From the NCBI GenBank assembly GCA_032718475.1, contig JAUCBJ010007594.1:1-64000 (forward strand): 64,000 bases of DNA. The letters are read 5' to 3'. A program made the position numbers and the translations under genes. The DNA comes from Nemertoderma westbladi (taxonomy: Eukaryota > Animalia > Xenacoelomorpha). A model generated the notes under the pieces. The model was not told the origin of the DNA and made no database searches. It was given only the letters and a program-made list of their open reading frames with translations. Positions 19,260 to 64,000 of the stretch are shown piece by piece; the stretch's first letter is position 1; each line of letters starts with the position of its first letter.

Positions 19260-22200
19260 CAGGGGTGAAATCTTACAGCACAGAAGGTTCGCCATGTCCT
19301 GCAATTGTCTGATTGTTACAGTTGAAAAATTGTGAATACTATAAACTGATATAATTGTATTGAAATTATTGCTTGTACAAAAACAGATATGTTGAGATAG
19401 ATATATTGATGTATAGAAACTGGTACATGAATGTCAGACATCAGAATGTCAGAATGTTACAGTTACATAATATATCGGACTTTACAAATACTGTAACAGC
19501 ACAGCATATAACTATATAAAGTAACCAATCTAAACTATAGAACAACTATAACTAAGAACTATCAACTATAATAAGAAATATAATGAGAACTATGCCTGTA
19601 TGCTACTATACTATACTATATTACATGTATTATACTACTATACTATTGAAAGATCATGGAGCTTCCTACCCCTGATTGACTGCTTCCGGTGTCTGACTGT
19701 ATGTATGCATGCAGTACGTCAGTACTGCAGTACCCGTATGATGTTCTGACTGCTGATCAATAATAATGATGCCAGCTAGGCAGACAGATTCCTGATATTA
19801 CGGAGGTTGGGATGGATAAGCCAATCAGGGAACAGGACAGTAATCCTACCTTATAAGGTAATACAAACATAAGGTTGCGTGCGCTGTCTCTATTATAAGG
19901 AGACAGCTGGTAATAAAATGCACAAATAGAAATATATGTGGGGCGAGTCATAAACTATGAAAAGCTCTAAGGCAATATAATATTCTTAGTTAAAGATAAT
20001 AAAGATATTGTAACTCTCTATATAAATGCATAATAGGTAGTTGACATCCCCACACCCACGACAGTGGCTTAGGGCCGCTGCCGTAACTATAAATTACGAC
20101 ATAATATGTACATATATAATATATAATGCACAATGAAAGGACATATAAAGTAATAATGTGAAATCAAACTCAAATAAAGTCACATAATATTTATATCTTT
20201 ACAAATGTCGGTTGGTGCTTTTGACTAGTTTTAAAATCTCACAATTGATTAAACAAATTATAAACTAAAACTCAGCTCAAAATGCACAAATAAATGCCAT
20301 TCTTATATATAGAAACTCTACTAATTTATATAGATTACTTTCAATGAAAATAATTACCGTAATTCATAGTAATAATGTTTCTTAGTAAGTTAAGACATAC
20401 TTAATAACAATATAAGTCCATAGATAAGATTAAATTGAGAAACGGTAATTTAAATATTCACCAAGGAGTATTAAAGAGAGCAAAAATGAATACGAAAATA
20501 CGAAAGAAAATACCATGAAATAACTATATATAACATCAATATAGTCATCAATCTATTATTACTAATTATAATCGAAGTACATCAATCATCGTAATGTTAG
20601 TGATATTTAACTGCTTTGATCGACTTTATTCCCAAACATCGAGTAACAAGTATAAAACGAGTTGTATATAAACACTAAATCCATTATCGTCAACAAACAT
20701 AAATTAAATATTCAGGGTAGAGGGATTGGGTTCAGAATGGGGTAAGGGACAAGATAGACCAGGGGGGGGGGGGGGGGGGGCAAAATGGAAAGGGAAAAGA
20801 GGGACAGGAAGAACGATACGAGAGGAATAGGCTGGACAGTGGACAGGGAAAATAAAGATGTCATATCAACAATGGAGTGCGCGCATCCTGGGGGGCCCAC
20901 ACACCCGTGAAACGTCACGGGAGGATAGATAAGGGAATATCAATTGTATAATAATAAAACTGTATTCATTATGTAGATTGCATGCATATCCATCCAATCC
21001 ATCCAAAAATTCACATCTATATAAATAATAGAATATCGTTATATCATTAAGTCGTATCCATATCCATATCGTATCATTATCATTATCAATCAGCATATAT
21101 AAATATATAAGTATATAAAATAATGAATTTAGTAACGGTAATTATAACATCATCATTTGGGTATAATCCATTAGTAATTGTTGACCATATATCATTACAG
21201 GGTTGTATATAACTTGAGTATATTATGTATAATATATATATATATATATAAATTAGAGTAGATATCTTTAATCTGCTTGTTCTAACAAGCAAAGTGTATG
21301 AATTGGGCGCTCAAGAAGTGAGCCACCTTTGAGTAAAACTTCAGCTACTCGGACTTGTTTATCTTCACCCGGGAAGACTTTAGTGACTCGTCCGATTGTC
21401 CAAGCTCCCTTGATGGAATCATCATCCATCACAAGTACAACATCATGAACCTTAAGGTTGTAGCCTGGACGGTACCACTTGGTTCGGGTATGTAAAGTAG
21501 GTAGATATTCACGAATCCACCTGCTCCAGAAAAAGTTAGAAAGAACTTGGGCTTGTCTCCAGGTGGTTTCAACACCTTTATTTGCGGTAATAAACAATCC
21601 TGGTGGGAGGTTTGAGACTGGATCTAAACAAAGTGCGTGGTTAGGAGTTAGAACAGTATCACCATGAACATCATCAGTGGTGAGGTACAGTGGCCGACTG
21701 TTCATAATGGCTGCGGCTTCAGAGAGAACAGTGCGGAGTGTGTCCTCACTGACAAGATGCGTTTCCAATGTGATTCGTAATATCTTCTTTGTCATTCCAA
21801 CAAGACGTTCCCAAACACCAGACATGTGAGGAGAACATGGGGGGTGCCAATGAAATTTGAGTGTATGATTGGGTACTAATACGTTTGAAAAATCGATATG
21901 TTGAAGATCCTCTAGGGCCTCCTTCAGTTGTTTCTCTGCACCAACAAAGTTTGTTCCATTGTCAGAATACATGTGCGCAACTCTTCGAGCTCTCGAGTTT
22001 ATGAAGCGACGGAATGTATTGATGAATGCATTCGTGGATAAGTCCGAAACAAGATCGATATCGACTGCACGAGTTGTTAGACAAGTGTACAACACTACCC
22101 AACGCTTAATTGATCCACGACCATATTTAGCCTTGACTGGGCCAAAATAATGGACACCCGTATGTGTCCATGGAGGAAGATATGGAATAGTACGAAAATG

Positions 22201-23286
22201 TGGCAAATCTGCCATACGTTGTTTCATTCGCTTACGATTTCGAATCTTACAAATCATGCAACGACTTAAAAATCTTAATACCTGATTCCTCAACCCAATA
22301 ATCCAATAACTACGGCGGATCTCATTTGTCATATGTTCACGACCTGCATGTCTCAAGGAACGATGAAGATCATTTATGAGGATAGGAATAATAGCTGAGT
22401 TCTTGGGGATAATTATGGGATTTGATTCATCAAAATTCAAGGCAGTGGTTACACACCTTGAACCCATTCTTATCAATCCATCACTATCAATATGTGGATT
22501 AAATCTCTCAATAGGACTTCCTTTACGAACTGGAAGATTGGAACTTAACCTTACAAGATCATCATGAAGCGGAAGTTGAGAATACTTGAGGACTGCGATT
22601 TTCGCTGCAAGTATCTCATCTGGACTCAAACGATCTTCAAGGGGAGGTATGAGCTCAGAACTGTTATGACATTTATAATATTGCGCTATACAAGCACGAC
22701 GAATACGTGCTACGCAACGATATAGACGATCTGATTCGCTAAAATGTTCTATAAACTTACGAGTATACCCATTGGTATTTGCTGAATTGGTAAAATTTAT
22801 TGAAATATCCTGCCTCAACTCTGAAAGATCATCAGGATAATCAGTATCCTTAACATGCGTTTTTGGCCATGATTCCTCTGGACCACTAAGAAACTGTGGT
22901 CCATTAAACCATCTCTTACTATCTACAAGTTGTTCAGGGGTCAGACCCCGAGAAACATCATCGGGAGAGTTACACTCTGTAGGAACATAACGCCAATTAA
23001 CAGTGGAAGTGTTTTTACGAATTTCTGTGACACGATTGTCAACAAAGGTTTTGAGCCGTAACTCGGTATTCTTAATCCAGGCGAGAACAACTTGCGAGTC
23101 AATCCAATAGATGAGTCTTGAGATTGTATAATCTATTTCGAGAGTGACAGCTAGACTTAAACGGAGAGCCATGATTGCTGCCTGTAACTCTAAACGTGGC
23201 ATTGTAACTGCCCGAAGTGGAGCAGTGCGAGCCTTAGAAGTTACATAGGATGTGAATGAATCCTTACGTCGCAAATAATTAACCAC
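19260..23286 (-). mobile_element. 5'-truncated BEL/Pao retrotransposon C
   Basis: Order is pol, ~1.2 kb non-coding, PPT GGGTGTGGGGA (20057-20047), then an LTR starting TGTCAAC at 20046. The far end of the LTR is uncertain. Confidence 0.8.
21268..23286 (-). CDS. BEL/Pao pol C-terminal part (RNase H, zinc finger, integrase, DUF5641-type tail)
   Basis: Open for 672 aa: SKARTAP...TMPRLELQAA, WIDSQVVLAWI, HAG..C..C, SDNGTNF, GVWERLV, RPIHTLCLL. The first catalytic Asp reads His (TGVHYFGP). Confidence 0.92.
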   Translation of the reverse strand: MVNYLRRKDSFTSYVTSKARTAPLRAVTMPRLELQAAIMALRLSLAVTLEIDYTISRLIYWIDSQVVLAWIKNTELRLKTFVDNRVTEIRKNTSTVNWRYVPTECNSPDDVSRGLTPEQLVDSKRWFNGPQFLSGPEESWPKTHVKDTDYPDDLSELRQDISINFTNSANTNGYTRKFIEHFSESDRLYRCVARIRRACIAQYYKCHNSSELIPPLEDRLSPDEILAAKIAVLKYSQLPLHDDLVRLSSNLPVRKGSPIERFNPHIDSDGLIRMGSRCVTTALNFDESNPIIIPKNSAIIPILINDLHRSLRHAGREHMTNEIRRSYWIIGLRNQVLRFLSRCMICKIRNRKRMKQRMADLPHFRTIPYLPPWTHTGVHYFGPVKAKYGRGSIKRWVVLYTCLTTRAVDIDLVSDLSTNAFINTFRRFINSRARRVAHMYSDNGTNFVGAEKQLKEALEDLQHIDFSNVLVPNHTLKFHWHPPCSPHMSGVWERLVGMTKKILRITLETHLVSEDTLRTVLSEAAAIMNSRPLYLTTDDVHGDTVLTPNHALCLDPVSNLPPGLFITANKGVETTWRQAQVLSNFFWSRWIREYLPTLHTRTKWYRPGYNLKVHDVVLVMDDDSIKGAWTIGRVTKVFPGEDKQVRVAEVLLKGGSLLERPIHTLCLLEQAD

Positions 23287-26200
23287 AATAATGAACGAGA
23301 GAAAGCCGCCCCAATATTAGATTATTACAACAACATATCCATTGGGTAAGAAAGTGGAGGAGAGCCAGCCCGTCTCCTAATTTTTTACTTTATGTTACGC
23401 GATCAATTTTCACTCATCCCGTCATGAACCCAACATGTATGTAACCTTTTGTTAAATTTGTTGGCTATGCGTTTGCGGTTGTTTGGGCGGAGTGTGGTAG
23501 GCCTACACTTTTCACACTTAAATATTTTGGTTGTGAAATGTTACAGGGCATAGCTATCTGAGATATTTCATTTATATTTTATTATGAGAGGAAGAAGAAC
23601 ATACAACGTTATTTACTATATATGTAACAAAATAATTGTTTTCGGGTTTAACTTGGAAGCCGCCCCAAATAGTTGATATACAATTATATTTAAAATTATT
23701 TCCATGGTCATGGTCATTCACCCGTCTTTAGTTAGAAATTTGTTTGCATGAAAGACAGTTTAGATTAGTTTTTACTGATTTATTATCTCTTATCTGACTG
23801 GGGTAATAATAAAGGATAGGATAAATGGAAGCAAAGTGTGACAGTAACAAATATTTCCCCGTCACCCTAGCATGTTTTAAGTATATGATATATCAAAGGG
23901 GGAAGTTTGGATTCACTGCATAAATGCAGTTCACCAAACTTCCCCCGAATGCACACTGTAACTTCCCCCTTCCCACAAATATCCACTGTTGAATTAATTT
24001 GAAGCGATATAATAAGTACAAAATTGTGCGAGTTTTTAATTGTGTAGTCCAATTGTTATTTGATTTCTATTTATTATTTAAAGTGCATTTAATATCACAC
24101 TGGTTTTTAGAATATTATACTATACAACCTTATGTTTTATTAATTTACCCAATCGAAGCCTCATAAGGGCCGGTTATTTGTACGCATATCCCCTAATGCG
24201 CTCAGTAAGGTTCAAACAACATATTAATATGAAAATAAAGTATCTGCAAAGAAAAGAACCCGATACTATATAATTTGACCTTATTAAAAAATTTGCACTT
24301 TTGCACACTTATTTGTACAAAATGCACTTTAGCAGATCGTAATGGTGGCTCTTATTTAACAAACTTATGTTTATCCTCTACCGATCTACGATGGTGTATG
24401 ATCAAGTGTCAGTCGCTAAAAGTGTCAAAAATCCAATTTAATAAATCTGGATTTGCGATTTTGGACCATATTCATGGACATTTTTAAGTCACTTTATAGA
24501 CATAAAAAGTTAAACAAATGTTACGATTATAGTTAGAAATCATTCCAAACTACATTTTAATCCAAAAAATAACATTCTACGATGAATAGAACTGGAAATA
24601 ACAGTGTTTGAAATATCGAAAAAATGTTCACTATTTAAGTGCATTTTGCACTAAGTGCACATAAGTCTTTTCCCAAGTTTTATCCTATTTCACACACTAC
24701 AATCTATCCTCTATCCAATGAAAAAAGTTTCAGATCAAACGGCCCAGTAGAACCAAAGTTATTGATGTTTAAAAATAGTCACTCGAAAATTTCAAATTAT
24801 CTTGGTCACATAGTCTAGTGGTTATCAATCACGTTAATGAAACCTAAGTTCGCGGGTTCGAAATCCAATATTGACCTGACCATTCTTAATTTTTTTGCAA
24901 AAAAAATTATTTTTATTTTTTCATTAAAATCGCTCTAACTTCGGTTCTGGTGGTCCAAATTCAATAAAATTGGTATATTCTTTGCCGTAATTTTTTTCTT
25001 AATCTTTTGAGAAGGGGTTATTTTTGGCCCCAAAAAAATTAAAAAAAAGGGCCAAAATAACGCGATATTTTTCGACCCTTAAAATTCGTAATTTTAATTA
25101 TATATGTTAAGATAAAAGATAGCGGAGTTAATTTGATACTTTTTACAGGTACTTTTGGCGCAATACGCTAAATTATAATGGAATAGCGATTTGTTAAAAA
25201 AAAAAATTTTTCGTCCCTTTTAATAAATATTATATTTCACACGATCGCCTGCCGCTCCAGTTTTATAATACCTCCGGCGCTGTGATTAACGCTGTCAGAT
25301 AGATAATTTAACGCACTATAAGTCTGTGTAAACAAATCTCCCGTAAGTTAAGTAGTTTTCGAGCTAGACGATTTCCCGCGAAGCGAGTTTGAAGCGCGAA
25401 ATTATAATTTTGGCCCTCACTTTTTTAATATCATCCTTGGAGCAAAACCGATAGCATATTTGAATTCCCCGTATGGATATTGACTGTATAGAATGTACCT
25501 TAACCAACTAAAGTTAAAAATAAAAAATTATTCGATAAAAACTACTTTACAAATTCTGACCCTTTTTGCCCCCTATTGCCGACATATTTTTTGTACCCCC
25601 ATTCGATAGGAACGTAGCCCCAATGGTCGTCTACGAGTTTCATAAAAGAATTAATGGATTCCTACCCGCGTTGTCGAATTAAAGATTTCGGAAATAAGTG
25701 TTCCAAAAAAGACGGACAAAAACGTACAAATTTACAGCCCCTTTTTCCACCAGAAATTTTAATAAATATCTTACCCCCATTCGATACGAAGGTAGTACCA
25801 CTCTTCCCCTTTCCAACCGCGTTACTTTCGTCCCCTTACGATTAATATTAGCCGAGTTATAGCGGATCCCGCAAAGTCATTTTGTCCGTTTTTTCAACTT
25901 TGACGGACATTTTCGGAAAAAAGGCGTGGTAATCTTTTTTGAAAAAAAAACGAATTCACTAATTAATCCCTTCTATCGTATCCCGGCGTCGGCTAAGCAA
26001 TAACCTAGGGTTTTTTCGAGCCACTGTAGAGCGCCTTTCAAAAAAATTTTAAAATTGTCGAAAAAATGACGGTTTTTTGTCCGTCTTGTCCGTCGAAGGG
26101 TTAGATTTAATAATGTTAGAGTTGCTAATATCTTAGAATTCCGAGCCGCTCCCCTGGTGAGAAAATAAAAAAATTTGGTCAGTTCCTTCATCGAAAAGTC

Positions 26201-29678: not shown

Positions 29679-31575
29679 TGTTGGAAGGGACGTAGCAATC
29701 CTGCAATATCCTACTGTAAAGTCTGCGAATCATAAAACATAAATCCAACCTTCTCACCAAAACAGTAAACTCTAAGTAGGCAGATCTATTGCAGTATCGG
29801 TCTCATTAACTGGTGAGGCAGAAGACAGTCTACGAACGGACAAACTTCGATAAAACAAAATCCCGCGCAGCGAATCCTAACGTCGTACTGACTTGCTGAC
29901 GGACTAAAAGCGCTCGTATACTTTGCCGCGGTGTGATTTATATGGGGTGGGGTTTGCTAGCTAAATGTCTAACTGCAGTATGGACCAAATTATTTTATAT
30001 ATTTCGAGGTGTAAATAATTCTTAACGCGTGTGTGTGTATCTTGATTTTGACAGTCAAAATTCAGTTTTTTATCCTTCAACATATATAATTACTGGGTCC
30101 GGTGTACATTTTACAAATATTCTAATTTTGTAGTTTGTAGGTCCAATACTTACAAATGATAAGGCTCCTTCCCCTTTTGTGTATTTCCAGGACTCAAATT
30201 CAGGCATAAGGTTAATACTACGCCCGGAATTCGGCAATTTAAATTTTCCAGGTCCCTAATACTAAGAAGAAATGTGTTAGTTTACTACAGTAGGCGTACA
30301 GTTACAAATAGCTAGCCTGGTCTCCTATCTAGAATTTTGGTTGCCTAGGTGGGCGTGGCAACTTCTTATCAGAATGTCGGCGGGGACACGGTAGGTGTTA
30401 GTATCCCTAATAGCCTTAATTGTAATGCGCCTAGCAATAAACTGCCCTACCGCCTGAACGGTATAATTTTGATTCAGGCAAAACACAGTAACCCCCTCCT
30501 GGCCTACAAGCTTCAATGCAAACGATGGACACTGTTGTACTACTGATAAACCACCAGCGCACCTATACCTGGCAAATGAGTTAGGCGTACAGTTGTGCTG
30601 TACCCTACTAATGTACATGCCTTGTAATGGTGTGCCTGTGTCCTATCTGTGTACTTGTATCTCTCTCTGCCTGCCTATCCTCTCCCCCCCCCCCCGTAGG
30701 AATGTGAAGGTTTACTGCGGGTTTGGTTCAAATCAAGACAATACAGTTCCTAAACTTTAATTTTGGCGCACAGCATGTCACTACTTCTACCTTTAATCTC
30801 AGGTCTTACGCTTAGGTAGCAAGGCATCAAACGCTGTCTAACCTTTCAGGCGATGGGCGAAGAACTATAATCAATATTGTGGGTGGTCTCCTCTCTACAT
30901 TCCGCCGATGTTCCCGTTTGTTGCTGCGGCCCGCTGTCTAGCCTGCCATCTGTCCCTCAGTTGGGTTCACCGTAGTGAAACATGTGAAAAGGCAGATATA
31001 GCAATAATTCTGACTTTATTACAGATAACCAACAAATTTCGAAAATAAAATACAAACAATTTATAAGCTACAAGTAAATTAGTATCAGAAATAACTAAAG
31101 TGAGTGATAATCAGATTAATAACTAATGAACAAATCGCACCCTTTTATAGCAAATTAGTGCTGCAAACAATCGAGAAAAATCTAGATTGTTCTATAAGTT
31201 CCATTGCGTTTTTAAAGAATACTATTGGTCCAGCGAACACATAACTTGCACGACATTGGTTACTGTCAAATAACTGCAATCGCATTGGTTAATCTACCTT
31301 GAGCAGATACAATTAAATCGTAGCGGTCAATTCAAATGAATTGAAATTTAGCACAAAAAATAATTCGCACCTGCTAGGATTTGAACTCAATACCTACTAA
31401 ACGAATTTCTAACACCTAACTGAGTGAGCTACTGAACCATCTGTACAATGTTGTACAAATAGCTATAGTAAATGCAAATGAGGACTTAATGTAATCTTTA
31501 TAACAATAATGCAAGTTAATTCCAACAAAATAAAAATTTTGAAATTCACGGCTTTTGTGAGGATATAATTCTATA
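29679..31575 (-). repeat. 3' LTR of element A (~1.9 kb)
   Basis: Follows GGAGCGG and runs TATAG...AACA. It has CCAAT boxes, TATAAAA near 31149, AATAAA near 31020, and blocks shared with the LTR of element B. Confidence 0.75.
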
Positions 31576-32181
31576 CCGCTCCATGAAAACAGGATATTAT
31601 CGTACATAAAATATACGGTTTTCACCAATAACAAATCGAATTATGAAATACTTGGGGCGTACCTACATATTTACAAATAAAATTTCAAACAATAATGCTT
31701 CCTTTCTACGTAATAATTTGGTACAAAATAATTACAAATTCAAACTTTACATATTTAAGGCTTTATTAGTAGCTACAATATAAATCTAAATTAAATTCAC
31801 CAATATAAATCTATTGCCTCTCAAATATATTGCATAAATTCAAAATAATCACAAATACAAATACTGCTTCCTTATATAAAATATAAATTGCATAAGTTCG
31901 GAATAATTACAAATATAAGTAAATGAAATCACAAGAAAGGCTCGCAAGTCTTCCGTCCACCCTCTTGCCTTCTATTTTACTGCAAATACAAATACTGCTT
32001 CCTTACATAAAATATAAATTGCATAAGTTCGGAATAATTACAAATATAAATCTTTCTAAATATAAATCTTTCTAAATATAAAACTTTCTAAATATAAATC
32101 TTTCTAAATATAAAACTTTCTAAATATAAAATAAATGAAATCTTAAGAAAGGCTCGCAAGTCTTCCGTCCACTCTTGCCTT

Positions 32182-35100
32182 CTATTTCACCCTGCCGCCC
32201 TGCCGCGTCCTCGAAAACTGCGTATATGCGACTTGGCTCATACCACAGGACTTATGGGGCGAGTCACTAGTTTACCTTGGACGTTGGGAGATGGTACGAC
32301 CATTTCCTCGCAAGCTCGTCTTTTAGTAATTCCAAATCCTCATCTGACTCCTCGTGACCGACTGGTTGGTTCTACCGTTGGCAAAACGTCTGGGAACGCG
32401 CTGGAAGCGGACGGTACAGACCCAAGAGAAACTTGCGCCCCCTTTTGATCGGCTGGTATATGTCCCAATCCTCCTTGCGGTTCTCTGGGAAGTGACACCG
32501 TATCTCGAGTGACTCGAATAGTCGGTTCAAATCCCTTTCGTTCTTCAATGTTTATAGTTTTCTTTAATTGTTGGTTCCCTTTCTGAACCCTTATGATCCT
32601 GTTCTGTCCGTCCTCCCGAGGCGAGGGTGACGTGCAGACGGCGCAACCGGAGTGGCTGGTATGTTGGTCGCCTCTAGGATCTCCTCTTCCTCGAATACGC
32701 TCGATCGTATGCGTTTGTGGTAAAAGGCGGCTCAGTACGCCCATGCGACGGTTAACCAAGCTCCCTTGTTTCGCTTTTCTGTTCGGAAACGATCAAATTC
32801 ACCATACGTAATACGATTAACGACTTTCTGGAAATTCCAGGTATTCTTATTGTCAGGATGAATCTGCCGTAAATATTCGCGCACAACTCTAAATCCACTA
32901 TCGTGAGGCAAAATGTCAACTACCTCGATTAGTTCGTCGTATTGTGGCATAGCAGAGATATATCCTTCCGACATCATAGTTTGGGGATTTACCGCCCAAA
33001 ATCCAAGATGTGCTCTCATCGGGAATCGTCTTCTTTGTGCCGATACATGTTCGTCAGCTAAATCTTCCCAATTATCAAACAGTTTTCTAACGAGTTTTAC
33101 AGATTCGTGTTCCTATGGTATGTCTCGCAATTGACATTCAGATGCTCGATTTCCCTTTATGAGCATTGAGCCATAAATCTCCAGCAAGTATAAAATGTAT
33201 GGGACCCTTGATCTCCACACCATCCACAAATCAGTTGAGTCATAGTAATGTGTTTTCCGCTACATTTCGTTGAGTGATGTCCAGCGACGCCACATTTACC
33301 ACACATAGTATTAGCAGTGAGACAAAGTAGATGTCTTTTAAGAGTCCGAGACACGATGTCGGCGATTAAGCAAACATTCACTGATGACTCTATCGCTAAA
33401 TAATATTGTAGTACTGCTCTTGGAGGTGAAGTAATAGCCCAGTGAGACAAAGTGGATGTCTTTTAAGAGTCCGAGACACGATGTCGGCGATTAAGCAAAC
33501 ATTCACTGATGACTCTATCGCTAAATAATATTGTAGTACTGCTCTTGGAGGTGAAGTAATAGCCCAATACACGCATCCTCTCCATTTTAGCTGTGTTTCA
33601 AACTCGTTTATGTCTGGAGTATCACCTTCTCCATACGTTTCGATATACTTTGTTCTTTTACTTTCCTTGTAATCCCAATTAAACATCAAGTAGGAAATGT
33701 ATCCAGTTCCGGTCTTCTGAGTGTCATACTTCACTGAAAAATCCTTGTTCTATGGACCACAGTATAAGAGGTCGAGTGTCGACTTAAGGTGTAATCGGTC
33801 GTCACTGTCCAACATGCCGGCGAAGTCGCTAATTAAATCCTCCCTCACTCCTGATCCAATCTTTACAACGGTTTTATCTAAGATAATGTTTCTTACCATC
33901 TTCGGTAACATTCTAGCATTGATGTTGCAGGCCTGGTCCATCTTCTTTACTATGTTGGTAATGAGATGGTGCCGCTTAGTATTTCCTGGAGGTATCGGCA
34001 TTCGTTTGTCGCTTCTTTGTCTACTGAAAACGTGCAAGACTCCGTCTGCTGCTCTAAATTGAATAGTCTTGGAAGTCAGACTCTGTTGATGGCTGCAGCC
34101 CTCGTTGTCATAATACATGTAGCCATTTTCTTGGAATGACCTAAGCGTCCTGTTCCATTCGTCCATTAATTCTTCCGAAGGTTGCCAAATCTTCTCTATA
34201 TCCTTTTCGAATTAACGAATAATTTTACCTTGCCAATTCGTGGCGATGTCTGTATCCGATTCAAAGGTTCCTGTTCCGATCCATAAGCGAATTGTTCTGG
34301 TCAGATATCCTTTCAGGTTGCTCGGAGCTATATCGGCGCCAGCTCTATCCAGTTCCCTAAAGTCTTGAATATGCGGCGGAACGTTATGCACGACCTTTTG
34401 CGTAATATGTCTTCGTAAATCATATATTTTAACCATATCGCTTAGAACAACTGCAGGAAGAAACTCTAAGTTTGAAATAATTTCCGGATGATCCACAATA
34501 GGTATTTCGTACGTCGTATCTTCTCGGACTGGTATACTAATAGGGAAATTGAGTGTCTTACTCAATGGTTTCGTAGGTACTATACGATTGCATTTCTCTT
34601 GTCCTTTCCGGTGATGCGATCTGTAGTCTCTGAATAACATTTTGGGCAAAGTTTATACTTTCGAAAATTTCTGGTGTCATCTCCTTAGCTGAAGTCTGAT
34701 CATGTGATGTCCAATGGTAAGGTAGGCTCGCGAGTCTTCCGCCCCATTCTTCTATCTCACCTTCCTCGAAAGCCTTGTAGGCTCTGTATAGGCTAAGAGC
34801 TTCTTTCTTTTCGCGGGTTGACTGAGTCACCTCTTCCAGCGTAAGTTCATATGCATCGGGTTCAACAATCTTAGGTGGGCAAACGACAATTTCTCCCGCC
34901 TTTGGTCCACACATAGCAAATGAATGATACGGATTCGATAAAGGATACCCTCCTTCCTGGTAACGTAGTTGTTGATGGTTTGAACACCTCGCTAATATCG
35001 GTTCGGGATTTTCCTTATTCAAACGCATCGGGATCGCCTTTTGTTTTTCGCGCATACAAGCACCACATTGATAATAAAGTTTATAAACTGAAAAGGCTTC

Positions 35101-35512
35101 CTTTGTTTCTCTATCGTCTCCTCGAGTTCATCTGTAAATATGCATTCCATCGAATTCATCGCGTACCGCAGGCATAGGTTCATCTGCCTTCAGGTATTGC
35201 ATGGTATGATACAAACGACTTATTTCGGTATCGGGGTCTTCACTGATATCTCCCGTATCGCATAAAGCATCGTACGGATAAAGTTCGTTGAAGGTTTTAC
35301 GCAAACTTTCGATTCTTTCGTTTAATTCGTTCTGCCTTCGAGTTTAATACCGTCGAGTCATATTTAGTCTTTGCATGTTTTGCTGTACTTTCTGATAAAT
35401 CCTTTATACCAAATATAGTGTAGTCTTTTGCTCCAAATCGTTCAAATGGAGCTGCAGCTTCCTCTTGGATATCATATCCCCATCTCGGCTCTCCAGATAT
35501 CCCCTTTGCCAT
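32182..35512 (-). pseudogene. Accessory ORF of element A (originally ~1100 aa): unknown N-domain, DEDDy 3'-5' exonuclease, two CCHC knuckles, Arg-rich tail
   Basis: Consecutive ORF pieces give ExoI YYDNEG, ExoII IILDKTVVKIGSGVREDL, ExoIII-like W...LQYYLAIE, then CGKCGVAGHHSTKC and CGWCGDQGSHTFYTC. It is broken by frameshifts and a 125-bp duplication (33315/33440). Confidence 0.75.
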
Positions 35513-36168
35513 TATTGGAAGTATGGTTACATAATCATTGCTACTAGAGGGAATACAACAGAGTTTATTGCTAGTTGTGAGGAGATTTTGAGAGTTTTTA
35601 CGTCTGCCCTTTTGGCTCGACAACGCTCCAACCTCCTACCCATAGCCTAAGATCTAAGGTTTCTTTAATGACACTCTGTTTCTTATCTAAAATTTTGCCG
35701 AAATAAAAACGATTTTGGGCTAAACTGGCTGTGAGTCTAAAATACTCACCTTTTGATCCCAAACTATTATCAGAAAATAAGCAATCAAGAATTAGTAATA
35801 TAGGGAAGTCTATTGGTTGACGTAACTTATTGAAACAAGACCGTGTAAAATTTAATTTTAAGAAAGGCTCGCGAGTCTTCCGTTCTCTTGTTTCTCTAAT
35901 TTTAAGTCCCACCCGACTGTACCCTGAAATCCATTCACTGGAGAATAATTTTAAAATTTTTCAAATCCAACTGGATTGTCTAAAATTTTGAAAATGTCTC
36001 ATATTGTGAGTTCCAAGTAGAATTCCATTTCTTATACCTACAAATCCCGCTCCTATGTGACACATAAGGGTACTACCCTCAATGTTCACATATGTAAAGA
36101 CAATGGAATTCTACTGCTGTCTTTACTACAGTGTACAGGTATGTGGAAATCTATTTGTAAACTCCTTA

Positions 36169-36733
36169 TTATTTACAAAGATTAGTTGGAGATTTGTAAT
36201 CTCCAGACTCGTTACGAGTCTCTTCAAGAAGTACGAGACGTTGAGTTGGTCTGTCTACCGTACGACCGTCAATTGTCCGTACTGTAACGGTCCTTGTTAC
36301 TCCGTCCATAGATGGGTGTGTGTATAAAATAACACCTGTTATCCAGAAGCGTCTTTTTAAATTCACTTCTGCTAACAGTACGTGATCGCCTGGTTTTAGA
36401 GCACGGGTGTTATTGTACCAAGTAGTTCTGGCGGAAATAGAGGGCAAATAATGGTTTTGCCATATTTCCCAGAATTTGTTAGCCAGTAGTTGCGTGATTT
36501 TCCATGCTTTTCTACCGTAGCTATCGCTTTCTATTGGAATAGAAATAGGCGTCAATGTAGTCGGTGCCTGCATTAGCAGGTGTGCCGGTGTTAAAGCAAA
36601 CTGGGATTGTTTGTCATCGGGTAGTAATACTATTGGTCTAGTTTTTAGTATTGCCTCGATTTCAACAAACAATGTGGTCAGTTGATCGTCTGTCAAGATG
36701 TGGTGTACTGGAATGACTTTTGCCATGGCTATT
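36169..36733 (-). pseudogene. BEL/Pao integrase C-terminus of element A
   Basis: EIEAILKTRPI...LTPAHLL...FWEIWQNHYL...RPTQRLVLLE, closely similar to 62836-62082. Confidence 0.92.
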
Positions 36734-36737
36734 TTAA

Positions 36738-38294
36738 CCCTATTAGTACCGGGCTATAAAATGATGTACAAATACCGGGAGGGGGTCATATTGACCCCCC
36801 CCCCCCCTCTAAAATCTACAAATATTTACGAAAACGTCAGATTTTTTGTTTGTACGTAGGTATCACTTGTCTGGATCCGACCAAAAAAAAAAATTTTCGA
36901 AAAAATGTACTGGGGTGGTTATATTGCAGCACCAAAATTACAAGTAGTGCACAATTTTCACAAAATTTGAAAGTTACATTTTAGGCTAATTATTTTTCAA
37001 TACAGGTTTTCTGGGGTGCAAAATACATTGGAAAATATTTAAAAAATGATATGATTACTATAAATGGCTGTTTAGTCCTCTCTGCGTAAGAAAAAAATGA
37101 AAAAAACAAGTAACCAGCACTTTTCAGTTAGAACTCAAAATTTTTAATTCACTTAAACGATGCTATAAATTCACATTTTCAGGTTTTCGAGGGCGCTGAT
37201 TCTAATGGAATACATTTCTAATATGCCAGATCATTGCTACTTGTATTTTTCGGCGTAATTTGGCAAATTTTGGTGCTAGCACCAAATTTCGTACCCATCA
37301 CCAAAAAGTACATGTTTGCGAAGTCCAGTGCTGTTTTTATTGATTCCATCGGATTCAGGACCCTCATAAACCCGTATAACGCAAGAAACAAGGTGATACT
37401 ATCAACTTTTCAATTTGCATGTTTTCCAAAATTTGGTGCTGGCACAACAATTTTCACCCACCGGCGAAAAATACAAGTTTGAGAACTCTTATGAAATTTT
37501 TACTGATTCCATTGAATTCAGAACCATCACAAACCCGTATAACGCAAGAAACAAGGTGACACAATCAATTGATATATTTGATGGTTTTCAAAATTTGGTG
37601 CTAGCACCACATTTTGCACCCACATCCGAAAAATACAAGTTTGAGATGTCTAGTTCGATAATTATATTTTCCATTGAATTCAGAACAGCTATTAACCTCT
37701 AAAACGCAAGAAATAAATTGTCACAAGCAATTTTATCTATTGAATGGATTTTCAAAATTTCGTGCTAGCACCAAAATTTGCACACAGCACCGAAAAATAC
37801 AAGTTTGATACGCTTGGTGCAACTCGTATATATTTCATCGAATCCAGAACACCAAAAACCCCAATTGCGTAAAAATGAAGTTTCAAACAATCAATTTACA
37901 AAATTGACTTATTTCAAAATTTGGTGCTGGCACCAAAATTTGGCCCCATCGAAAAAAACAAGTTTGAAATTTCTAAATCAATTTATATGAATTCCATCCA
38001 ATTTCTAACACCAAAAAACCGGTGTAAATCAAAAATAGAGATGTTACAATTCATCTTTAATGAAATGTTATTTTCAAAAAACGTCTCAAAAAAAGTGCCA
38101 AAAGTAGGGTTAAAACAGGGTGCTAAAACTCGAAAAGTACCCAATATTTTTGAAAACGGTTTTCACTACTAGGAAGACAATAGATTTTAGGAAAAGTCAT
38201 AAAATTACAGATTCCCAACTGCGTTTGTTTCAGAATTATAATAAAAAAACCACGGGGGGGGGGGTCATATTGACCCCCCCCGGGTTTAATAGGG
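36738..38294. mobile_element. piggyBac-type MITE with both ends
   Basis: TTAA|CCCTATTAGTACCGGG ... CCCGGGTTTAATAGGG|TTAA, with subterminal GGGGTCATATTGACCCC palindromes and ~163-bp subrepeats. Confidence 0.9.
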
Positions 38295-39323: not shown

Positions 39324-39421
39324 GCTACCACCGACCTTAGCACGCTACCACCGACCTTAGCACGCTACCACCGACCTTAGCACGCTACCACCGACCTTAG
39401 CACGCTACCACCGACCTTAGC
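39324..39421. repeat. 20-bp minisatellite within the array unit
   Basis: (GCTACCACCGACCTTAGCAC)n, five copies in unit 1. Confidence 0.95.
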
Positions 39422-55787: not shown

Positions 55788-58700
55788 GTAATATATGCTT
55801 GTATATAATTTAAATCCATAAAACATTACAACAAATATTACAATTTAAATTTATTATTCTTAGTTTTTAATTATTGTGTTATGATATTCTAATACATTAC
55901 CAACAAGAGGGATAGTATTGGTACATTATTTATATTATATATATATATAACTCCAACTGGTGGTCATAGGGTCACTCCTTAATAATTAAGATATAAACAA
56001 GATATAAACATTAACTATCAAATAATAATAGAACAAGAGAAGCATGTTAATAATAATATCTATTAATTGTTAGAAAAATCCGATACAAAAAATTTCAAGG
56101 CTCCAATATAATGACCATTATAAATATCTTGTTGGATATTCGTTTGCAATACATTTCTATAGGAAAAGTACATAACACAAAACGACCACAGGGCCACCTA
56201 ATTTTTCTGGTAATTATTGTGTAATTTACACTCCAAAAACACGGTCTAGAACTCAGATCTTTTCCGAAAATGCTTTGTTAGACTTTTCTACACCGTTTTT
56301 ATTCATTTGAAAACTTAGGTATATTTTAATATATAATTTTATATATCTTTGATTCCATGACTATCTTGTAGTTATTTGAACCAAGATGGTGGCTTATCTG
56401 AGACAAAGTTGAAAAATTAGTAAGTGTTGTGTCCTCTACTGTAGGGACTACCCTACGGCCTACAAATCTACTAATACGAAGCTATAGAATATCTCTAACC
56501 GTAAAGTCCAGTAGTATACCGCTTACCAGATCCTAGTAACGATGTATCTTACTGTAAGACTCTAGTAATGAAACGGGCTCGTACAGTATCGGACAACAAA
56601 TCCCAGTCCAGGATATCTAAACAAACAGATACAATAAACAAACTACTACTGGCGAGGAGCAGAGCCTGGTGTCTATTCTATGTACGTGAGCGGGTCTAAT
56701 GCCTATGAACTAGACAAAAGGAAACCTGTCCTCTAACCGGTATGGCAGATGTACAGTTACAGTAACAGACCAAACTCATGGGAAAACAATCCCTGCGCAG
56801 CGAATCCTAACTATCGCTGACAGTCCTAAAATACCGTAACTTGCCGCGGTGTGATTTATATGGTTTATATACGAGCTAGGTGGGTTACAGCCCCAGCGTA
56901 ACAATACTGATCTCCCTGTCTGAATCAGTCTAAAAGAGGTCGTGCCTAATGTAACAATACCGCCGCTTGAGGCAAACAACGGTTTAAATAACGAAATAAT
57001 GAAATACTCCCTTGCCGTAACTAAATATTTGATCCTAATTTTACAAATACGAATAGTAAATTACAGATAAATTCTGCCTAAAAGTAATCTAAAGTGCGCT
57101 ATAACTGGTAGAACTCTAAGGGTAAATATGTTTTAGGGCGTGTGTGTGTGGGTGTGTTACAATAAAACAATTTTGGTGTATATCATTTTACTAGGTTTTA
57201 GTAATTCTCTGACCGAAACAATACCGTGCGCTAGCTACTAAAATAAGCTAGTCGCGTTTTGTAGAACTTTATACTCACAAATGACGTCAAAGCTTCTCTC
57301 CTTCCTATCCACAACTCAACTAGGCAACCACGGTGTTAGTAACTACACCCGTGATCGGCACAAATACCAGATTCTGGTTGTAAGATAAGAAATAGGGGTT
57401 AATTGCTACCGTACGTTAGCTGATCTGGTATAAAAATTTGATTCTGATTACTTTGGTGCTGCGGTGGTTAGCAGCAAATACCTATCAGCACGTGGCAAGG
57501 CGCGGTAGGATATTAATAAAACCTCCTTAGGCCAAGCGGTGTGCCGGTAGCAGAAATACTCCTTGCCTGATCAAATAACTAACTTCAGGCGGGGGGGGGG
57601 GGGGGGGGGGTGTACTAATGTACAGTTCTACAAAGCGAACCGGTACCAAACAGTCACTACTAACAAATCACTAAATTATGGAACGTATGCTGTCCGCACC
57701 TAATATGTACTTGCGCACTGAAGAACGACAATAGCTCGCACCTGTGAGGTATACAGGTAACCCAGAGATTTGCAGGACTGACAAAGGGGGTTTCTGCCTC
57801 GAATATAGTTATTTGATCCTAAATTTTGCGGCGTCCCAATACGGCGTCACGCTTACCCTGATCTATAGGTCTTACGTCGGGCAAGGGCGTCGAACAAAGT
57901 CTTACCTTCCTCATAAAGCGGGCGCTGCATGGCAAGTTGGAGTATTTCGTAGGGCGAAGGGGGTGCGCGGTCTAACCTAATGTGGGAGCTAGCGTGTTGT
58001 GGACATCCTTTCCCTGCGTTGCTGACGGCCTAACGGTCTAGGCGGCCATCTTCCCGATGTTTGGCTGTCCCAAAGTTGGACCAAAGAAAAACATGTTCAG
58101 AAGTTGACAGTGTATTTACAGTTTAGCAAAGGATTTATCAAACAGATTTACAAATAGTTTCAACAAGAAACTAATAACGAAAGACTGACAAAGCAAGAGT
58201 ACATTGTGATAACCGAAGGCAAACCAGCCTTTATATACTAAATCTGGGACATAGAATCTACTAGAACCTTCCAGAGTATTCCATGGCCTCACATTGGAGC
58301 AATAAGATGTTCTATGCCCTATGATTGGCCCAGCTCAACGTTCGATACGTTGTATGCACCTCATTGGTCCACCAATCTGCACCAAATGAAAATAAATTGC
58401 CCCAAAATACAAATTTCCCGACCGGGATTCGAACTTGTAACCTATCTGTAATGTAACCAACGCCTTAACCATCTGACCACTACGCCACGAGAGTAACTAG
58501 GGGTTTTATGTGTACAAATATGAATAGGCATATTACATTACTGTAACTTACTCAAAATGCGTCGGATTTTCGTAAGTTTTTATGTTAAAGTTAAACTATA
58601 AATGCTATCTTATAGTGAAATAATTCATTACCGCTCCATGAAAACAGTAAGTAAGACTGTTTTCACCAATCGAAATACGAACTATTTACAAATATTTCTA

Positions 58701-59277
58701 AATCTACTGGTAGGGCCTAAAATATAAAATAATCACTATCTAATTATTGCATACTTAATATTGCAGGTACGGTGTAAATACAATCCATCGTACATACAAA
58801 TATAAATTTACCAATTAACTTTAGTGCCTAAAATACACAAGGGCTTTCGGTTATCAAGGTAAGCAAATTAAACTAATTAGATCAAAACAAATTAGAACAA
58901 ATCAAACAAATAATTTCAATCTCTTTCGATAAATCTTTATATATTGTAAATATACATAATAAACTTCCACCAAATTAAATCAGTGCTAATAACTTTCAAA
59001 TGAGTTTTAAAGTGTCCTCCTGATGAGCTGAAAAGTTCGTCCTGCTGGTCTGGATATCTTCTCCTGAGCGCTAATCGCTAACGGTAGGCTCGCAAGCCTT
59101 CCTTCTCTATCTCGCTCCTCCAAAACCAACATTCATACATAATGTCCAATATTAATACCCAAATATAATATCCAAATAAAATATCCAATATAAATATCCA
59201 ATATAACATCCAAATAAAATATCCGAATATAAATATCCAAATCGGTAGGCTCGCAAGCCTTCCTTCTTGTCGCTTTC

Positions 59278-61344
59278 CTATTCCTGCGCTGAGCGGGCTC
59301 GTCTACGTCCTCTAGTGTGATTGGGTGGTGGTCGCGGTCGAACTGGGCTCGGGCTTCGGCGTCGAGTTGTCGGTGGTTCCAAAACGCTAGGAAAGGGGAC
59401 GACGGGAGTTTCGCACATCCGTTGTGCGCTCAATCCTCTAAATCCTCGTCCGATTCCAATCGTCGACTTAACATCGGATCGAGTCTCTACAACGCTGGGA
59501 GGAAGTCGAAAAGGTGGGACTATTCCGTCCGCTGACACCTCGCTCTCTGATGTCGTTTGAATCCTAATGGGTTCCGGCAAAGCGTATCCTGTCCCTCCGC
59601 GTGGTTCTCTAGCAAGGGAAACCGTGCCCCGCGTCATCCGGATTTGCGACTTCGATGTCGTCCTTTCGGCGACATTTACTACCTTCTTTATCTCTTGTCC
59701 GGCCTTTTGGGCTCTGTGTATACGAAATTGCTGATCATCCTGTGGGTGCGCTTTCGTCCTTTTGGGCTCCTCCCCGAGGCGCACCCACGAGGCGGACGTG
59801 TTTCCACCACCCCTGGGGCCAGTCCGACAGATGTTACTATCAGACCGGACCGGAGGGTGGGCTGATGCTTCCCGGGTTCTGTTTTCGGTCCCCCGATCAC
59901 ACCAGCACAGCTCGTCAAACGTGTAGCCAGATGGTCGGCTACTGTCAACTTACTGTGGCCTGACTGTACATTGAGCCAACTCAAAGTATAACAAAGATTC
60001 AACCGGCAGGTGGACCAGTCGATAGCGATCGAGCACCAAGGTCACCCTTGGGCCTAACCGACGGTCTTGTCCCAAGCGGGCTTGCGCTACCCAACATGGA
60101 ATTTTGACTCGTTTTCACCTGCCTCGCCGGCAGTATTGAAAAGACAATACTGTCTGTAGCTCATAAGCTACTGAACAAGTAACCACTTACCAGTCAGTGT
60201 ACACGTGTACTCAACAGATGTTCACAAAATCAAGTACACAAATGGTAAGCACAAAATCGAACACATACCATGCACACACAGAGACATAATCAGGTAAGAT
60301 AAAATCGGGGTCAAAATCAGAAGGGACAAATTGTATCGACAAACGGCAAAATCGAGAGTACCTTATTTTACCGACAGGGTAAAATAACTTTGTGTGCACA
60401 AAGTATGCTGGGGCGCAGTAAAATATGGTCCTACTAATACCAGCGGTGTCTGAACCAACTGGTAAGGGTTCCCATACTCACTCGCAGTGGCCACACATAC
60501 AATCACGTGTACTCACATACCTACAGCAACAGAAAGCTCAGAGACCCAGACGGCTGAACCAACCAAAAGACCAATCAGCTGAACATGGAGACAATAACAT
60601 GTAGTATCAAAAAAACGGAACAGCTGATGGCCAATGGAACCATCCAAGCCCCAAGCCAACTGCCACTGGTTGCTCACATACAAAACATAGTTCACACCAC
60701 ATGAACCACAAATCACGCCATGCCACCACCCCTACTGTGTACAGGACTGGCAGTATGGCAACAGGCCGACTAGATGGAACCACGGCACCATGTCGATTCA
60801 TGACACGAGGGCCTTCAGTATCTCCCTTGCACTTAGAGAAGGAAATTTAACGTGCCCCCAGACCCTCACAAGTCCGCCGCCGCCTGTTGCACGCACCCCT
60901 ATAGAGACCTCACCTCTTTAGGTACGCGTCCTTTGTCTCTGGATCCGCTCCTCGAGCGCGTCTATAAAGATGCATTCCTTCGAATTCGTCTCTGGCTGCA
61001 GGTAAGGGTTCGTTTACCGTCAAATATTGCAGCGTATGATATAATCGGCGTATCTCTGTGTCTGGATCCTCGCAAATGTCACTAGCGTCGCATGTCGCAT
61101 CGTAGGGATACAATGCATTGAACTCCGTGCGTAATTCCTCCGTTCTTTTGTTATAAGCGTCCATTCGCTGTCGCGTAACATTCGGGTCCACCTTGGATTT
61201 AGCGAGCTTGGCTCTACTTCTGGCCATACTCTCCACTCCAAACACACTGAAGTTTTTAGCTCCATAACGATTAAATGGTGCCTGGTGCTCTTGTTCCTGC
61301 GTAAACCCTTGACGTAACTCCTTATGCATCTTCTCCGCCATCAT
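59278..61344 (-). pseudogene. Accessory ORF of element B with the exonuclease and knuckle region missing
   Basis: The N-part (PFNRYGAKNF...LYPYDATCD..EDPDTEIRRLYHT) and C-part (IRMTRGTVSLAREPRGG) match element A. The middle (~60000-60900) is unrelated. Confidence 0.75.
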
Positions 61345-62081
61345 ATACGCATATATATGGTTACATATCGTTACGTTTCTACTAGATGAAGCAAAAAGTA
61401 GAGGTTAGATGTGAGGTGACTTAGAGTTTGTCGGCTTTTGGCTCAACTTTACTCTAAAACCCCAACCCATTTGCCTAATGACTTCGGGTTCGCGTGATTT
61501 CGCACTGGCTCCTAATCCAAAAAAATTGTGCCGATAAAAAACGAATTCTGGGTAAACTAGCCGCGAGTCTAAAATACTCACCTTTTAATTTCCCAAACTA
61601 CATTCCTAAAGAAAATAATGCAGTCGAGAATTAATTTGGTCTAAATAATAGTAGACACGACTACGTAGAACAAGGCCGGTTTTCTTTTTCCAAAAAAATT
61701 TATCGGTAGGCTCGCATGCCTTCCATCCGCTCTTGTCCTCCCCAATTTTAATTTTTATCTAGCTGTATTCTAGAATTCACATTCACTGGAGAATAATTTT
61801 TCTTAAATTCAAATCCAACTAAATGGATTTGTCTAATAATTTTTGAAAAATTGTCTCACTTGTGGGTTCCAAGTGGAATTCCATTCCTACTGTACACACA
61901 ATCCCACTCCTATGTGATACATAAGGGTACTACCCTCCATGTTCACATATAAAGACAATGGAATTCCACCGCTGTCTCTATCTACAGTGAAGAGGATTAC
62001 AAATGCACATACAGTAATACAAAATACTAAATTACTAAAATACGGTAAGTCTATGTGGCGGCCATCAAAGGTCCTACTTCT

Positions 62082-63869
62082 CTATTTACTAATATTGGGT
62101 GGAGATTTGTAGTCTCCTGTCTCGTTTCTAGTCTCCTCAAGGAGTACGAGACGTTGTACAGGCCTATCTACGGTACGTCCGTCGATAGTCCATACAGTAA
62201 CTGTCCTTATTAAACCAGATGTAGGGTGTGTGGTCAAAATGACTCCGGTCAGCCAAAACCGTCTTTTCAGATTGGCTTCAGCCAATAAAACGTGGTCACC
62301 ACGTCTCAAACATCGGGTATTAAGATACCAAGAGGTTCTGGATGAAATAGAGGGCAAATAGTGTTTCTGCCATATTTCCCAGAATTTATTTGCTAATAGC
62401 TGAGTGATTTTCAAGCCTTGTTGCCGTATCCGCCGCTATCAACGGGTATCGAAATGGGCAACAATGTCGTCAGCGGCTGCATAAGCAGGTGCGCTGGTGT
62501 CAAGGCAAACTGTACGTCATTATTGTCTGGGATCAAAGCGATCGGTCTAGTGTTCAAAGTTGCTTCGATTTCTATTAGTAACGTCGTCAGTTGGTCGTCT
62601 GTTAAGATGTGTTGCGTCAGTATTACTTTAGCCATAGCTGTCTTAATTGAGCCAATCAGCCTTTCCCAAACACCGCCTCTCCACGGACTGTCCGGAGTAT
62701 TAAAATTCCAAACAATACGGTGAGGACTTAGTTCCTCGGAAATCTGGTTTTGGTCCAACTTCCTTAAAGCTCTGGTTATTTCGTTCCGTGCACCCACAAA
62801 GTTTGTCCCTTGGTCGCAATAAATGGATTTGACCAATCCACGTCTAGCGATAAATCACCGTAAGGCTAGAATAAAGGCATTGGTGGTTAAATCTGTCACA
62901 CGCTCTATATGGACAGCTCTGCTGGCCATGCAAGTGAAGATTAATCCCCAACGTTTTATCTGTACCCTTCCGCGTTTCGTGATTATGGGTCCAAAACAGT
63001 CTATCCCTGTCTCAGTGAAAAGGGGTCTAAACGCCTGCAATCTCGCTAATGGTAGTTCACTCATTTCTTGGTGTCCTATCCTCACGTGCACCTTCTTACA
63101 AATCATACAGTTCCGTGTTACCGATCTCAGTGCCTTGCTAGGCCTAATCAGTACAAACCTCGATCGCAAATGTGACATACAGTGATGTCTACCCACGTGT
63201 TTGAGTTGTACATGTGCGTCCAGTATCATAGTGCGCTGTAACTCATGGTGTTGCGGTATGATGATAGGATACCTAAAGTCAAGTGCAAAGTCGATGTTCT
63301 GGAGTCTGGACTTGTGACAAAGTAAGCCCCGATAAATAATCGGACTCCAACTCAAAAGACTTGATCTGTTTACCTTGGTTGATCGCTGTGAATTCTCGTG
63401 CGAAATATCGCAATTGATAATGGCAAATGATATCAACTTCACAATGACCAACTTCCTCTAAGGTAAGTCTTCTAGGAAAGTCGCGTTTGCCTCTGGCATA
63501 TTGTCTCAAACGTTTGAGCCATGCTAACTTGCGGCACGCGTCAGTCCATGATCTAGTTAGGTTTACTATCTGGTCAACGTAAGTGTTAGTGACGTCATCA
63601 GGTAAGGTATAGTCGTAGTGTGGATACTTGTCTGGACTTGGTAGGCCCACGGGCCTTCCGGTAGGTTTGTCTGAGTCCCCAAATATGTCAATCTCCACGG
63701 TCTTACCTTTACCGTCCGCTCCTAGTGAGTCGACTGGCAGTAACGGTTTCAACTCTACAGTGTTAGTGTGTTCCTGTGAGCCTGTAAGCTTCCTAACCTT
63801 AGTTACACGTTTACCTGTAGGTGGTAAGTCAAGTACTTTCTTTGAGCGGAGTGTGATAGCTGTGGCCAC
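62082..63869 (-). pseudogene. BEL/Pao pol (zinc finger, integrase, tail) of element B, frameshifted
   Basis: HVG..C..C, TGIDCFGP, CDQGTNF, GGVWERLI and RPVQRLVLLE spread across four ORF pieces. Confidence 0.93.
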
Positions 63870-64000
63870 ACCTTTGTCGTCTCGTCCAAAGAAGTCAAAT
63901 TCGGTAAATTTCTAAATGTCCGCTCCAATGGGTCTTCTACTGGAGTGTCTAGTAGACAGTCTGGTGAAACGTCCGGTGAACAGTCTGGTGAGACGTCTGG

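Follow-up and report, generated by a model that had tools for sequence, protein, structure and literature searches.

A BEL/Pao retrotransposon of Nemertoderma westbladi with a large second gene behind pol that probably encodes a DEDDy-like exonuclease domain

Introduction

Can a BEL/Pao retrotransposon carry an exonuclease gene between pol and its 3′ long terminal repeat (LTR), and what would such a gene do for the element? The question is raised by a stretch of 64,000 bp from the xenacoelomorph Nemertoderma westbladi (contig JAUCBJ010007594.1, positions 1 to 64,000, assembly GCA_032718475.1), called the window hereafter. A sequence-only reading of the window had placed a gene for a DEDDy 3′-5′ exonuclease with CCHC knuckles behind the pol gene of a BEL/Pao element, which we call element A. 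BEL/Pao elements are metazoan, and the only third gene named in the ICTV profile of Belpaoviridae is env (PMC8742986); the available part of a 2011 survey likewise names only env, with 0 occurrences of the word exonuclease (PMC3118150).

Element A and its second gene

Element A is a BEL/Pao element with a large second gene (open reading frame 2, ORF2) behind pol (Table 1). The last 190 codons of pol are kept, ending with a stop at 36169, and this Pao-type integrase end matches DUF5641 (E 1.1e-21), which we take to be a domain linked to Pao elements. It is 73% identical in DNA to the pol end of a second element in the window, element B, and 32% identical in amino acids (E 5e-22) to the pol of a third, element D. 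A spacer of 657 nt separates the pol stop from an ATG; decayed coding sequence of about 3.3 kb on the same strand comes next, then an AT-rich stretch, the purine tract CATGGAGCGG and the 3′ LTR. The pol stop and the coding region were found at the positions first reported for them. The polypurine tract of about 10 nt that precedes the 3′ LTR in BEL/Pao elements is present in elements A and B, and their 3′ LTRs are homologous (score 76 versus -60 ± 14 in 100 shuffles). In BEL/Pao elements each end carries an LTR of 0.2-1.2 kb; the 5′ end of element B lies outside the window, and no 5′ LTR, tRNA primer-binding site, gag or reverse transcriptase of element A was found within the 64 kb. Inspection of the junction at 36737 revealed that an unrelated insertion starting TTAA-CCC truncates element A.

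The span of ORF2, counted without a tandem duplication, is about 1,070 codons. It had been taken for an open frame; the copy in element A has six in-frame stops (35130, 34214, 33752, 33159, 32342 and 32240) and about five frame changes, and the 125-bp duplication shifts the frame as well. Over 406 codons the exonuclease frame is interrupted by 2 stops, each of the other two frames by 25; in the stretch upstream of it, running from the block shared with element B into the middle of the gene, 253 codons contain 1 stop (8 and 16 in the others). The motifs YYDNEG, IQFRAADGVLHVF, LPKMVRNIILDKTVVKIGSGVREDL and W..LQYYLAIE, two CCHC knuckles and an Arg/Pro-rich tail follow in this order, all where the sequence-only reading had claimed them. 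The knuckle pair is the sole knuckle match in the six frames of the window, and none of 3000 shuffles of the region produced such a pair; Pfam zf-CCHC gave no match on it. Family and homologue searches with the N-terminal block were without match, and no Atlas look-up with the two open pieces at the N-terminus reached 0.9.

The highest 19-residue Kyte-Doolittle mean across all ORF2 pieces of elements A and B was 1.39. With no transmembrane stretch ORF2 is therefore not env, a candidate that was rejected for lack of a membrane anchor. In the accessible part of the literature, Belpaoviridae with an env-like gene share with element A the Pao-type pol end, the purine tract, an LTR of about 0.6 kb and the gene slot; ORF2 differs from BEL env in having no signal peptide or transmembrane anchor.

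Table 1. Coordinates of element A, its second gene and related features in the window
Feature	Position	Strand	Remarks
Element A, BEL/Pao	begins 36737, 3′ LTR ends 30951	-	
3′ end of pol (integrase C-terminal region), element A	36169..36737	-	DUF5641 match
Nested hairpin, about 100 nt	36016..36115 (A); 61872-61970 (B)	-	just behind pol stop
16-nt motif, first of four copies in element A	35865..35880	-	near-palindromic
Predicted intron in ORF2 leader	35544..35749	-	donor AAG|GTGAGT at 35749; pyrimidine tract and CTAG acceptor ending 35544
ORF2 of element A	35512 to ~32182	-	ATG at 35512
ORF2 N-terminal part	35092..35512	-	common to element B; domain without family match
C-x2-C-x23-C-x2-H cluster	34975..35067	-	possible metal site, from sequence; Atlas matches ≤0.83, weak FLYWCH lead
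16-nt motif, copy 2	34724..34739	-	inside ORF2
DnaQ/DEDDy-like domain (putative)	33489..34166	-	one in-frame stop inside, 33752
ExoI	34127-34098	-	D 34109, E 34103; YYDNEG at 34115-34098
ExoII	33902-33834	-	D 33839
ExoIII	33545-33489	-	Y 33527, E 33515
125-bp tandem duplication of ExoIII segment	33315..33566		shifts frame in element A copy
Two CCHC zinc knuckles	33184..33303	-	33303-33262 C-x2-C-x4-H-x4-C; 33228-33184 C-x2-C-x5-H-x4-C
Arg/Pro-rich tail of ORF2	32182..32792	-	common to element B
16-nt motif, copy 3	32150..32165	-	
16-nt motif, copy 4	31938..31953	-	
Purine tract	31576..31585	-	identical in element B at 58640
3′ LTR of element A, ~625 bp	30951..31575	-	CCAAT boxes, TATA box, AATAAA; ends GGGACA
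Element B, sister subfamily	58066..64000	-	pol, spacer as in element A, start and tail of ORF2 around a replaced middle, 3′ LTR
Element D	21268..23316	-	open BEL pol fragment of 682 codons, with RNase H and integrase

Exonuclease-like domain

Profiles were built from proteobacterial PF01612 proteins (30 NrnC-like, 10 RNase D, 10 PolA and 10 WRN-exo-like). The 10-member WRN-exo-like profile and the pooled 60 matched weakly at ExoII, with scores that 5 and 6 of 2000 shuffles reached. A hidden Markov model (HMM) of 52 WRN-exo-like proteins gave 3.4 bits on the ORF2 middle, a score reached by 2 of 2000 shuffles. When searched against the PDB, the WRN-like seed profile placed WRN, Mut-7 and EXD2 first. 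As the ORF2 domain has long insertions, the five core blocks of the 52-sequence profile were also scored in order with free spacing, and they fell unprompted on NGYMYYDNEG, SKTIQFRAADGVLHVF, KMVRNIILDKTVVKIGSGVREDL, TGYISYLMFNWDYKESK and RAVLQYYLAIE. This chain scored 31.0 bits, which 1 of 3000 shuffles equalled, and was the top of 1,950 six-frame windows. True DEDDy domains scored 30.5-71.8 (n = 50) and PolA exonucleases 30.5-58.9 (n = 10), with ORF2 at the low end; none of 190 control windows, taken from 131 other long frames after 33 of 164 frames had been excluded as DEDDy, reached the ORF2 score (maximum 21.6). Each of the five catalytic positions held an acid or Tyr in 0 of the 190 controls and in 14 of 3000 shuffles, and MAFFT independently placed the same 5 of 5 catalytic residues (1 of 181 shuffles as good).

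At ExoI, both the chain test and MAFFT put YYDNEG in the FDxE columns, giving D-x-E after a beta strand, with a block score of just 4.3 bits. ExoII has the Asp of K-x-G-x-G-x3-D and is the sole local HMM match. ExoIII reads Y-x3-E in element A; the sequence-only reading had pointed out a Glu where Asp is expected, and Asp indeed stands there in 50 of 50 control exonucleases. Because ExoIII lacks Y-x3-D, we file ORF2 as DEDDy-like and not as a canonical member; its catalytic set is D-E-D-Y-E. ORF2 has the same five core blocks, in the same order, as the group of WRN-exo, EXD2, Nibbler/Mut-7, EXD1 and Egalitarian. Compared with 47 bacterial WRN-like members, ORF2 is 14-24% identical and differs in two long insertions, the Glu at ExoIII and the absence of a PF01612 match.

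A good number of results weigh against an exonuclease and against the function proposed below. ExoII gives 21.7 of the 31.0 bits, and the rest is matched by 120 of 600 shuffles, so that without ExoII the chain score is not significant. ORF2 has 10 matches among the 22 invariant columns, a number that 11 of 181 shuffles reach too; it also requires insertions of about 33 and about 21 residues and carries Glu at ExoIII. The WRN-like profile was picked after its response was known; the NrnC-like (n = 30) and RNase D (n = 10) profiles were without signal, their scores being reached by 188 and 164 of 2000 shuffles, and the PolA profile (n = 10) gave no score on the ORF2 middle. The exonuclease region found no match in Pfam, NCBIfam and PHROGs at E up to 10, did not reach the cut-off of Pfam DNA_pol_A_exo1 (PF01612), and had no match among PDB sequences, in homologue searches for proteins of similar and of greater length, or among 1.84 billion representatives. 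Metagenome and viral contigs, plasmids and phages searched with this region gave no match either, nor did metagenomes searched with the pol end. These blank homologue searches are weak evidence, because the collections hold few animal transposon genes.

Profile-profile comparison and unguided structure prediction did not identify a DnaQ fold: the hhalign probability for the ORF2 middle was 5% at best, and a single-sequence AlphaFold2 model failed (pLDDT 33). With 47 WRN-like rows as a guide, a second model came to pLDDT 67, and 130 of its 244 residues had pLDDT 70-90. Residues 1-244 of this model aligned to Nibbler EXO with Z 11.9 (root-mean-square deviation, rmsd, 3.4; 170 residues aligned) and the model to TbRND, the RNase D of Trypanosoma brucei, with Z 10.3; the top rows were tied, and no nearest family member can therefore be named. 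Foldseek gave it template modelling (TM) scores of 0.30-0.46 with rmsd up to 20 (EXD2: E 2e-4, TM 0.30), a further point on the negative side. The guided model is circular, having borrowed the WRN-like alignment, and was made without a control fold; it is compatible with a DnaQ fold, and compatibility is all that we take from it.

The blank library and homologue searches, the hhalign value and the dependence of the chain score on ExoII would all fit a middle that is not DnaQ-derived, with a lucky ExoII-like segment in a nucleocapsid-like RNA-binding protein whose fold is not known. We think this quite unlikely, with five blocks in the right order, acids or Tyr at every catalytic position, the best chain of the 1,950 windows, and a fold that guided AlphaFold2 accepts across the whole domain. 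The domain that the sequence-only reading had assigned to DnaQ/DEDDy gains moderate support from the profile and block tests, and gains nothing from curated libraries, homologue searches or unguided folding; the ORF2 middle is probably DnaQ-derived.

Other copies, element B and selection

Copies of the element were sought in four DNA runs with one organism label (at most three samples), the best of which may be the window's own source; what is said of single pieces and differences rests on 32 listed pieces out of about 11,000 and on 40 listed difference rows out of 701. The element A stretch was covered in 30 of 30 bins in all four runs. A contig of 1,887 nt from the fourth run, which is of another sample, spans 33577-35453 at 89% identity (214 other letters, 14 gaps) and joins the part of ORF2 common to element B with ExoI and ExoII, and another contig connects the pol end with the spacer. 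Among the differences listed, other copies differ from element A at the 34214 stop; among the pieces listed, none spans the whole of element A with paired LTRs. We conclude that ORF2 is a real gene of an element family, decayed in element A.

Element B has the start (61341-60922) and the tail (59826-59296) of ORF2 at the same place, as had been reported; the same ORF had been claimed for it, and this does not extend to the middle, where about 950 bp are unrelated to element A (best tblastx E 0.058). No exonuclease motif or knuckle was found in the ORF2 of element B. Element B is regarded as an altered copy because its ORF2 middle is foreign sequence. The replacing sequence lies at 59950-60910.

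A joint that skips 32819-34635 (1,817 nt) and would remove the exonuclease and knuckles was seen in three of the four runs, weakly supported by one contig per run with a short side of 26-30 nt. This joint, and the start and tail without middle in element B, could suggest that the exonuclease and knuckle segment is a separate element nested in an older, shorter ORF2. Such nesting is extremely unlikely in our view: the frame of the shared block continues into the middle with the single stop in 253 codons given above, the 89% identical contig crosses the junction, and it is the middle of element B that is foreign.

In the 75-codon N-terminal block of ORF2, elements A and B are 68% identical, with proportions of nonsynonymous (pN) and synonymous (pS) differences of 0.18 and 0.83. 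The other three ORF2 blocks have pN 0.41-0.44 and pS 0.83-0.84 (tail: 41-45% identity, pN 0.41-0.42, pS 0.84), and pol has pN 0.11 and pS 0.68. Synonymous sites are saturated or nearly so and pN is low, which argues that ORF2 has long been a selected gene. By this measure the start and tail of ORF2 are under purifying selection; the comparison is of the start and tail shared by A and B, with the exonuclease middle outside it. The selection in A and B and the contigs of other copies uphold the idea of a stably inherited gene.

Element D carries Peptidase_A17, Integrase_H2C2 and DUF5641 and aligns to elements A and B. It had been called a distant homolog of the ORF2 gene; the resemblance to element A is confined to pol, no ORF2 homologue was found behind its pol in the window, and element D was rejected as an ORF2 carrier.

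Spacer signals and expression

The spacers of elements A and B are 69% identical (446 of 650 aligned positions), with near-identical blocks. One feature of the spacer is the nested hairpin, with z-scores of -5.1 (A) and -4.6 (B) and 0 of 200 shuffles as stable in each case; it has 40 consensus pairs with 1 compensatory change, in a comparison of only 2 sequences. Rfam gave chance-level rows only for elements A and B and no match for the hairpin, which is a candidate packaging, export or translation signal.

Donor and acceptor signals of the predicted intron sit at matching places in A and B, with the acceptor just before the ATG. Judged from these signals, ORF2 probably has a separate mRNA with a spliced leader, rather than being made as a fusion to Pol. 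The near-palindromic 16-nt motif has seven sites in the window (11 matches on both strands), all in element A or B (in B at 61708, 59247 and 59086), where 0.01 would be expected by chance; copy 1 lies 116 nt upstream of the splice donor. The motif usually follows a purine run; its sites flank ORF2 on both sides, and one lies within the gene. A joint at 31928-35859 seen in the runs was set aside, as its ends both fall on copies of this motif and its short side measures 23 nt.

The hairpin bears on a different role for ORF2, in which the domain is DnaQ-derived but weak or dead and the protein is an RNA-binding adaptor that grips the hairpin to export, localise or package unspliced RNA, in the manner of EXD1, Egalitarian or Rev/CERV. 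It would account for the Glu at ExoIII, for knuckles and an Arg-rich tail in the same protein, and for a hairpin near-identical in A and B despite saturated synonymous sites; in the parts of the sources available, EXD1 is described as an inactive DEDD derivative (PMC5408684) and the CERV of Cer1 as required for export of unspliced RNA (PMC10309623). All three other acids and the Tyr are retained, however, the Glu may be private to the decayed copy in element A, and nothing ties the ORF2 protein to the hairpin. We regard the adaptor as unlikely; the D-E-D-Y-E site is slightly more likely to be catalytically active than not.

Comparison with known systems

Juno and Vesta are Ty3/gypsy-like elements. 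DEDDy ORF3s in the env slot have been published for bdelloid Juno, Vesta and Athena/Terminon, with DEED sites and, in the part of the paper available, activity unproven (PMC5408684); they are restated in available parts of PMC5718144 and PMC6338049. As described there, the ORF3s of Juno, Vesta and Terminon resemble ORF2 in being an extra gene in the env slot with a DnaQ-like exonuclease, an altered catalytic set and no transmembrane part, a comparison made by description and not by sequence. ORF2 differs in its D-E-D-Y-E set, which does not read as their DEED (PMC5408684, as far as available), and, again as they are described, in its BEL/Pao host, its length of about 1,070 residues, its two CCHC knuckles and its Arg-rich tail; the term CCHC is absent from the text of PMC5408684. 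The slot had been called usually empty or env-like in BEL elements; the idea of an exonuclease there is less new in view of the published bdelloid ORF3s. No paper on a BEL exonuclease was found in a literature search that excluded Repbase, Dfam, subscription journals and supplements. The BEL host, the size and the exonuclease-plus-knuckle layout appear new.

The layout of an exonuclease followed by knuckles is shared with TbRND, in which, in the part of the source available, a DEDD exonuclease is followed by C-terminal CCHC fingers that hold the RNA a few bases upstream of its 3′ end (PMC7797062). TbRND as described there is a cellular mitochondrial enzyme with four fingers and a D-E-D-D set, and it has no sequence match to ORF2; we treat the likeness as architectural analogy, not as demonstrated homology.

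Another transposon-encoded DnaQ-like exonuclease is the DEDDy domain of Dada (PMC3706591), which in the accessible text is inserted in a DDE transposase, keeps an intact DEDD and belongs to a DNA transposon. Its domains are proposed there to process 3′ ends (PMC3706591), and ORF2 could similarly act on DNA and trim or proofread cDNA 3′ ends before integration. The best fit among the profiles tried being WRN-exo-like is in keeping with such a role. We nonetheless hold it to be very unlikely, given that cDNA ends are already processed by integrase and that element D has no such gene behind pol. Knuckles behind the exonuclease also bind RNA in the trypanosome RNase D, according to the available part of PMC7797062.

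Proposed function

By analogy with the trypanosome enzyme, we lean slightly towards the reading that ORF2 trims RNA 3′ ends within the element's own cycle. A separate spliced mRNA would yield the ORF2 protein, the knuckles and tail would hold single-stranded RNA, and the exonuclease, like trypanosome RNase D, would use two metal ions to take nucleotides off the 3′ end. The likeliest substrate would be RNA of the element's ribonucleoprotein cycle (transcripts, primer or cleavage products), with host small RNAs as second choice. The gene would be accessory, since element B persists without the ORF2 middle.

Counter-silencing, the boldest reading and one that turns on host small RNAs, would require that a knuckle-anchored 3′-5′ ribonuclease, made from its own spliced mRNA and with the D-E-D-Y-E set, destroys or mis-trims host PIWI-interacting RNAs or their precursors, and that its origin is separate from that of the exonuclease genes in bdelloid and gypsy elements. 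We rate this as unlikely. For RNA 3′-end trimming, as by trypanosome RNase D, the knuckle-plus-exonuclease layout offers a concrete model, and copies without the ORF2 middle are a natural comparison. A highly diverged gene of this kind in BEL/Pao would mean that LTR superfamilies recruited exonucleases repeatedly and independently, and would speak for a need that retrotransposons have in common in their cycle. Standard annotation misses the ORF2 protein because it has no detectable homologue in the 1.84 billion representatives.

Other features of the window

The short element starting TTAA-CCC occurs in two copies, 36734-36917 and 18574-18762, the former truncating element A. The first 151 bp of the element A LTR recur at 55168-55020 (-) with 98% identity; this fragment is cut by a 2.9-kb repeat, begins like the LTR of element A with TA and not TG, and was ruled out as the 5′ LTR of element A, its target-site duplication having no match. 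Both 3′ LTRs contain a tRNA-like A-box and B-box (31360-31445 and 58412-58497, -) that lie upstream of their CCAAT and TATA boxes and in which ARAGORN identifies no tRNA.

The 2.9-kb unit forms a tandem array at 38286-49510 and 53383-55027, with units 97-99% identical; it contains a 20-bp repeat and lacks a long ORF. A broken transposase matching Pfam DDE_Tnp_1_7 (E 5e-50) lies at 50140-51962 (-), presumably of piggyBac type. Reverse transcriptase fragments matching RVT_1 (E 1e-24) at 15095-16572 (+) and 26468-26818 (-) probably belong to a non-LTR element. Arrays of a unit of about 162 bp were found at 2417-4472 (as inverted repeats), 26796-27581 and 37236-38020.

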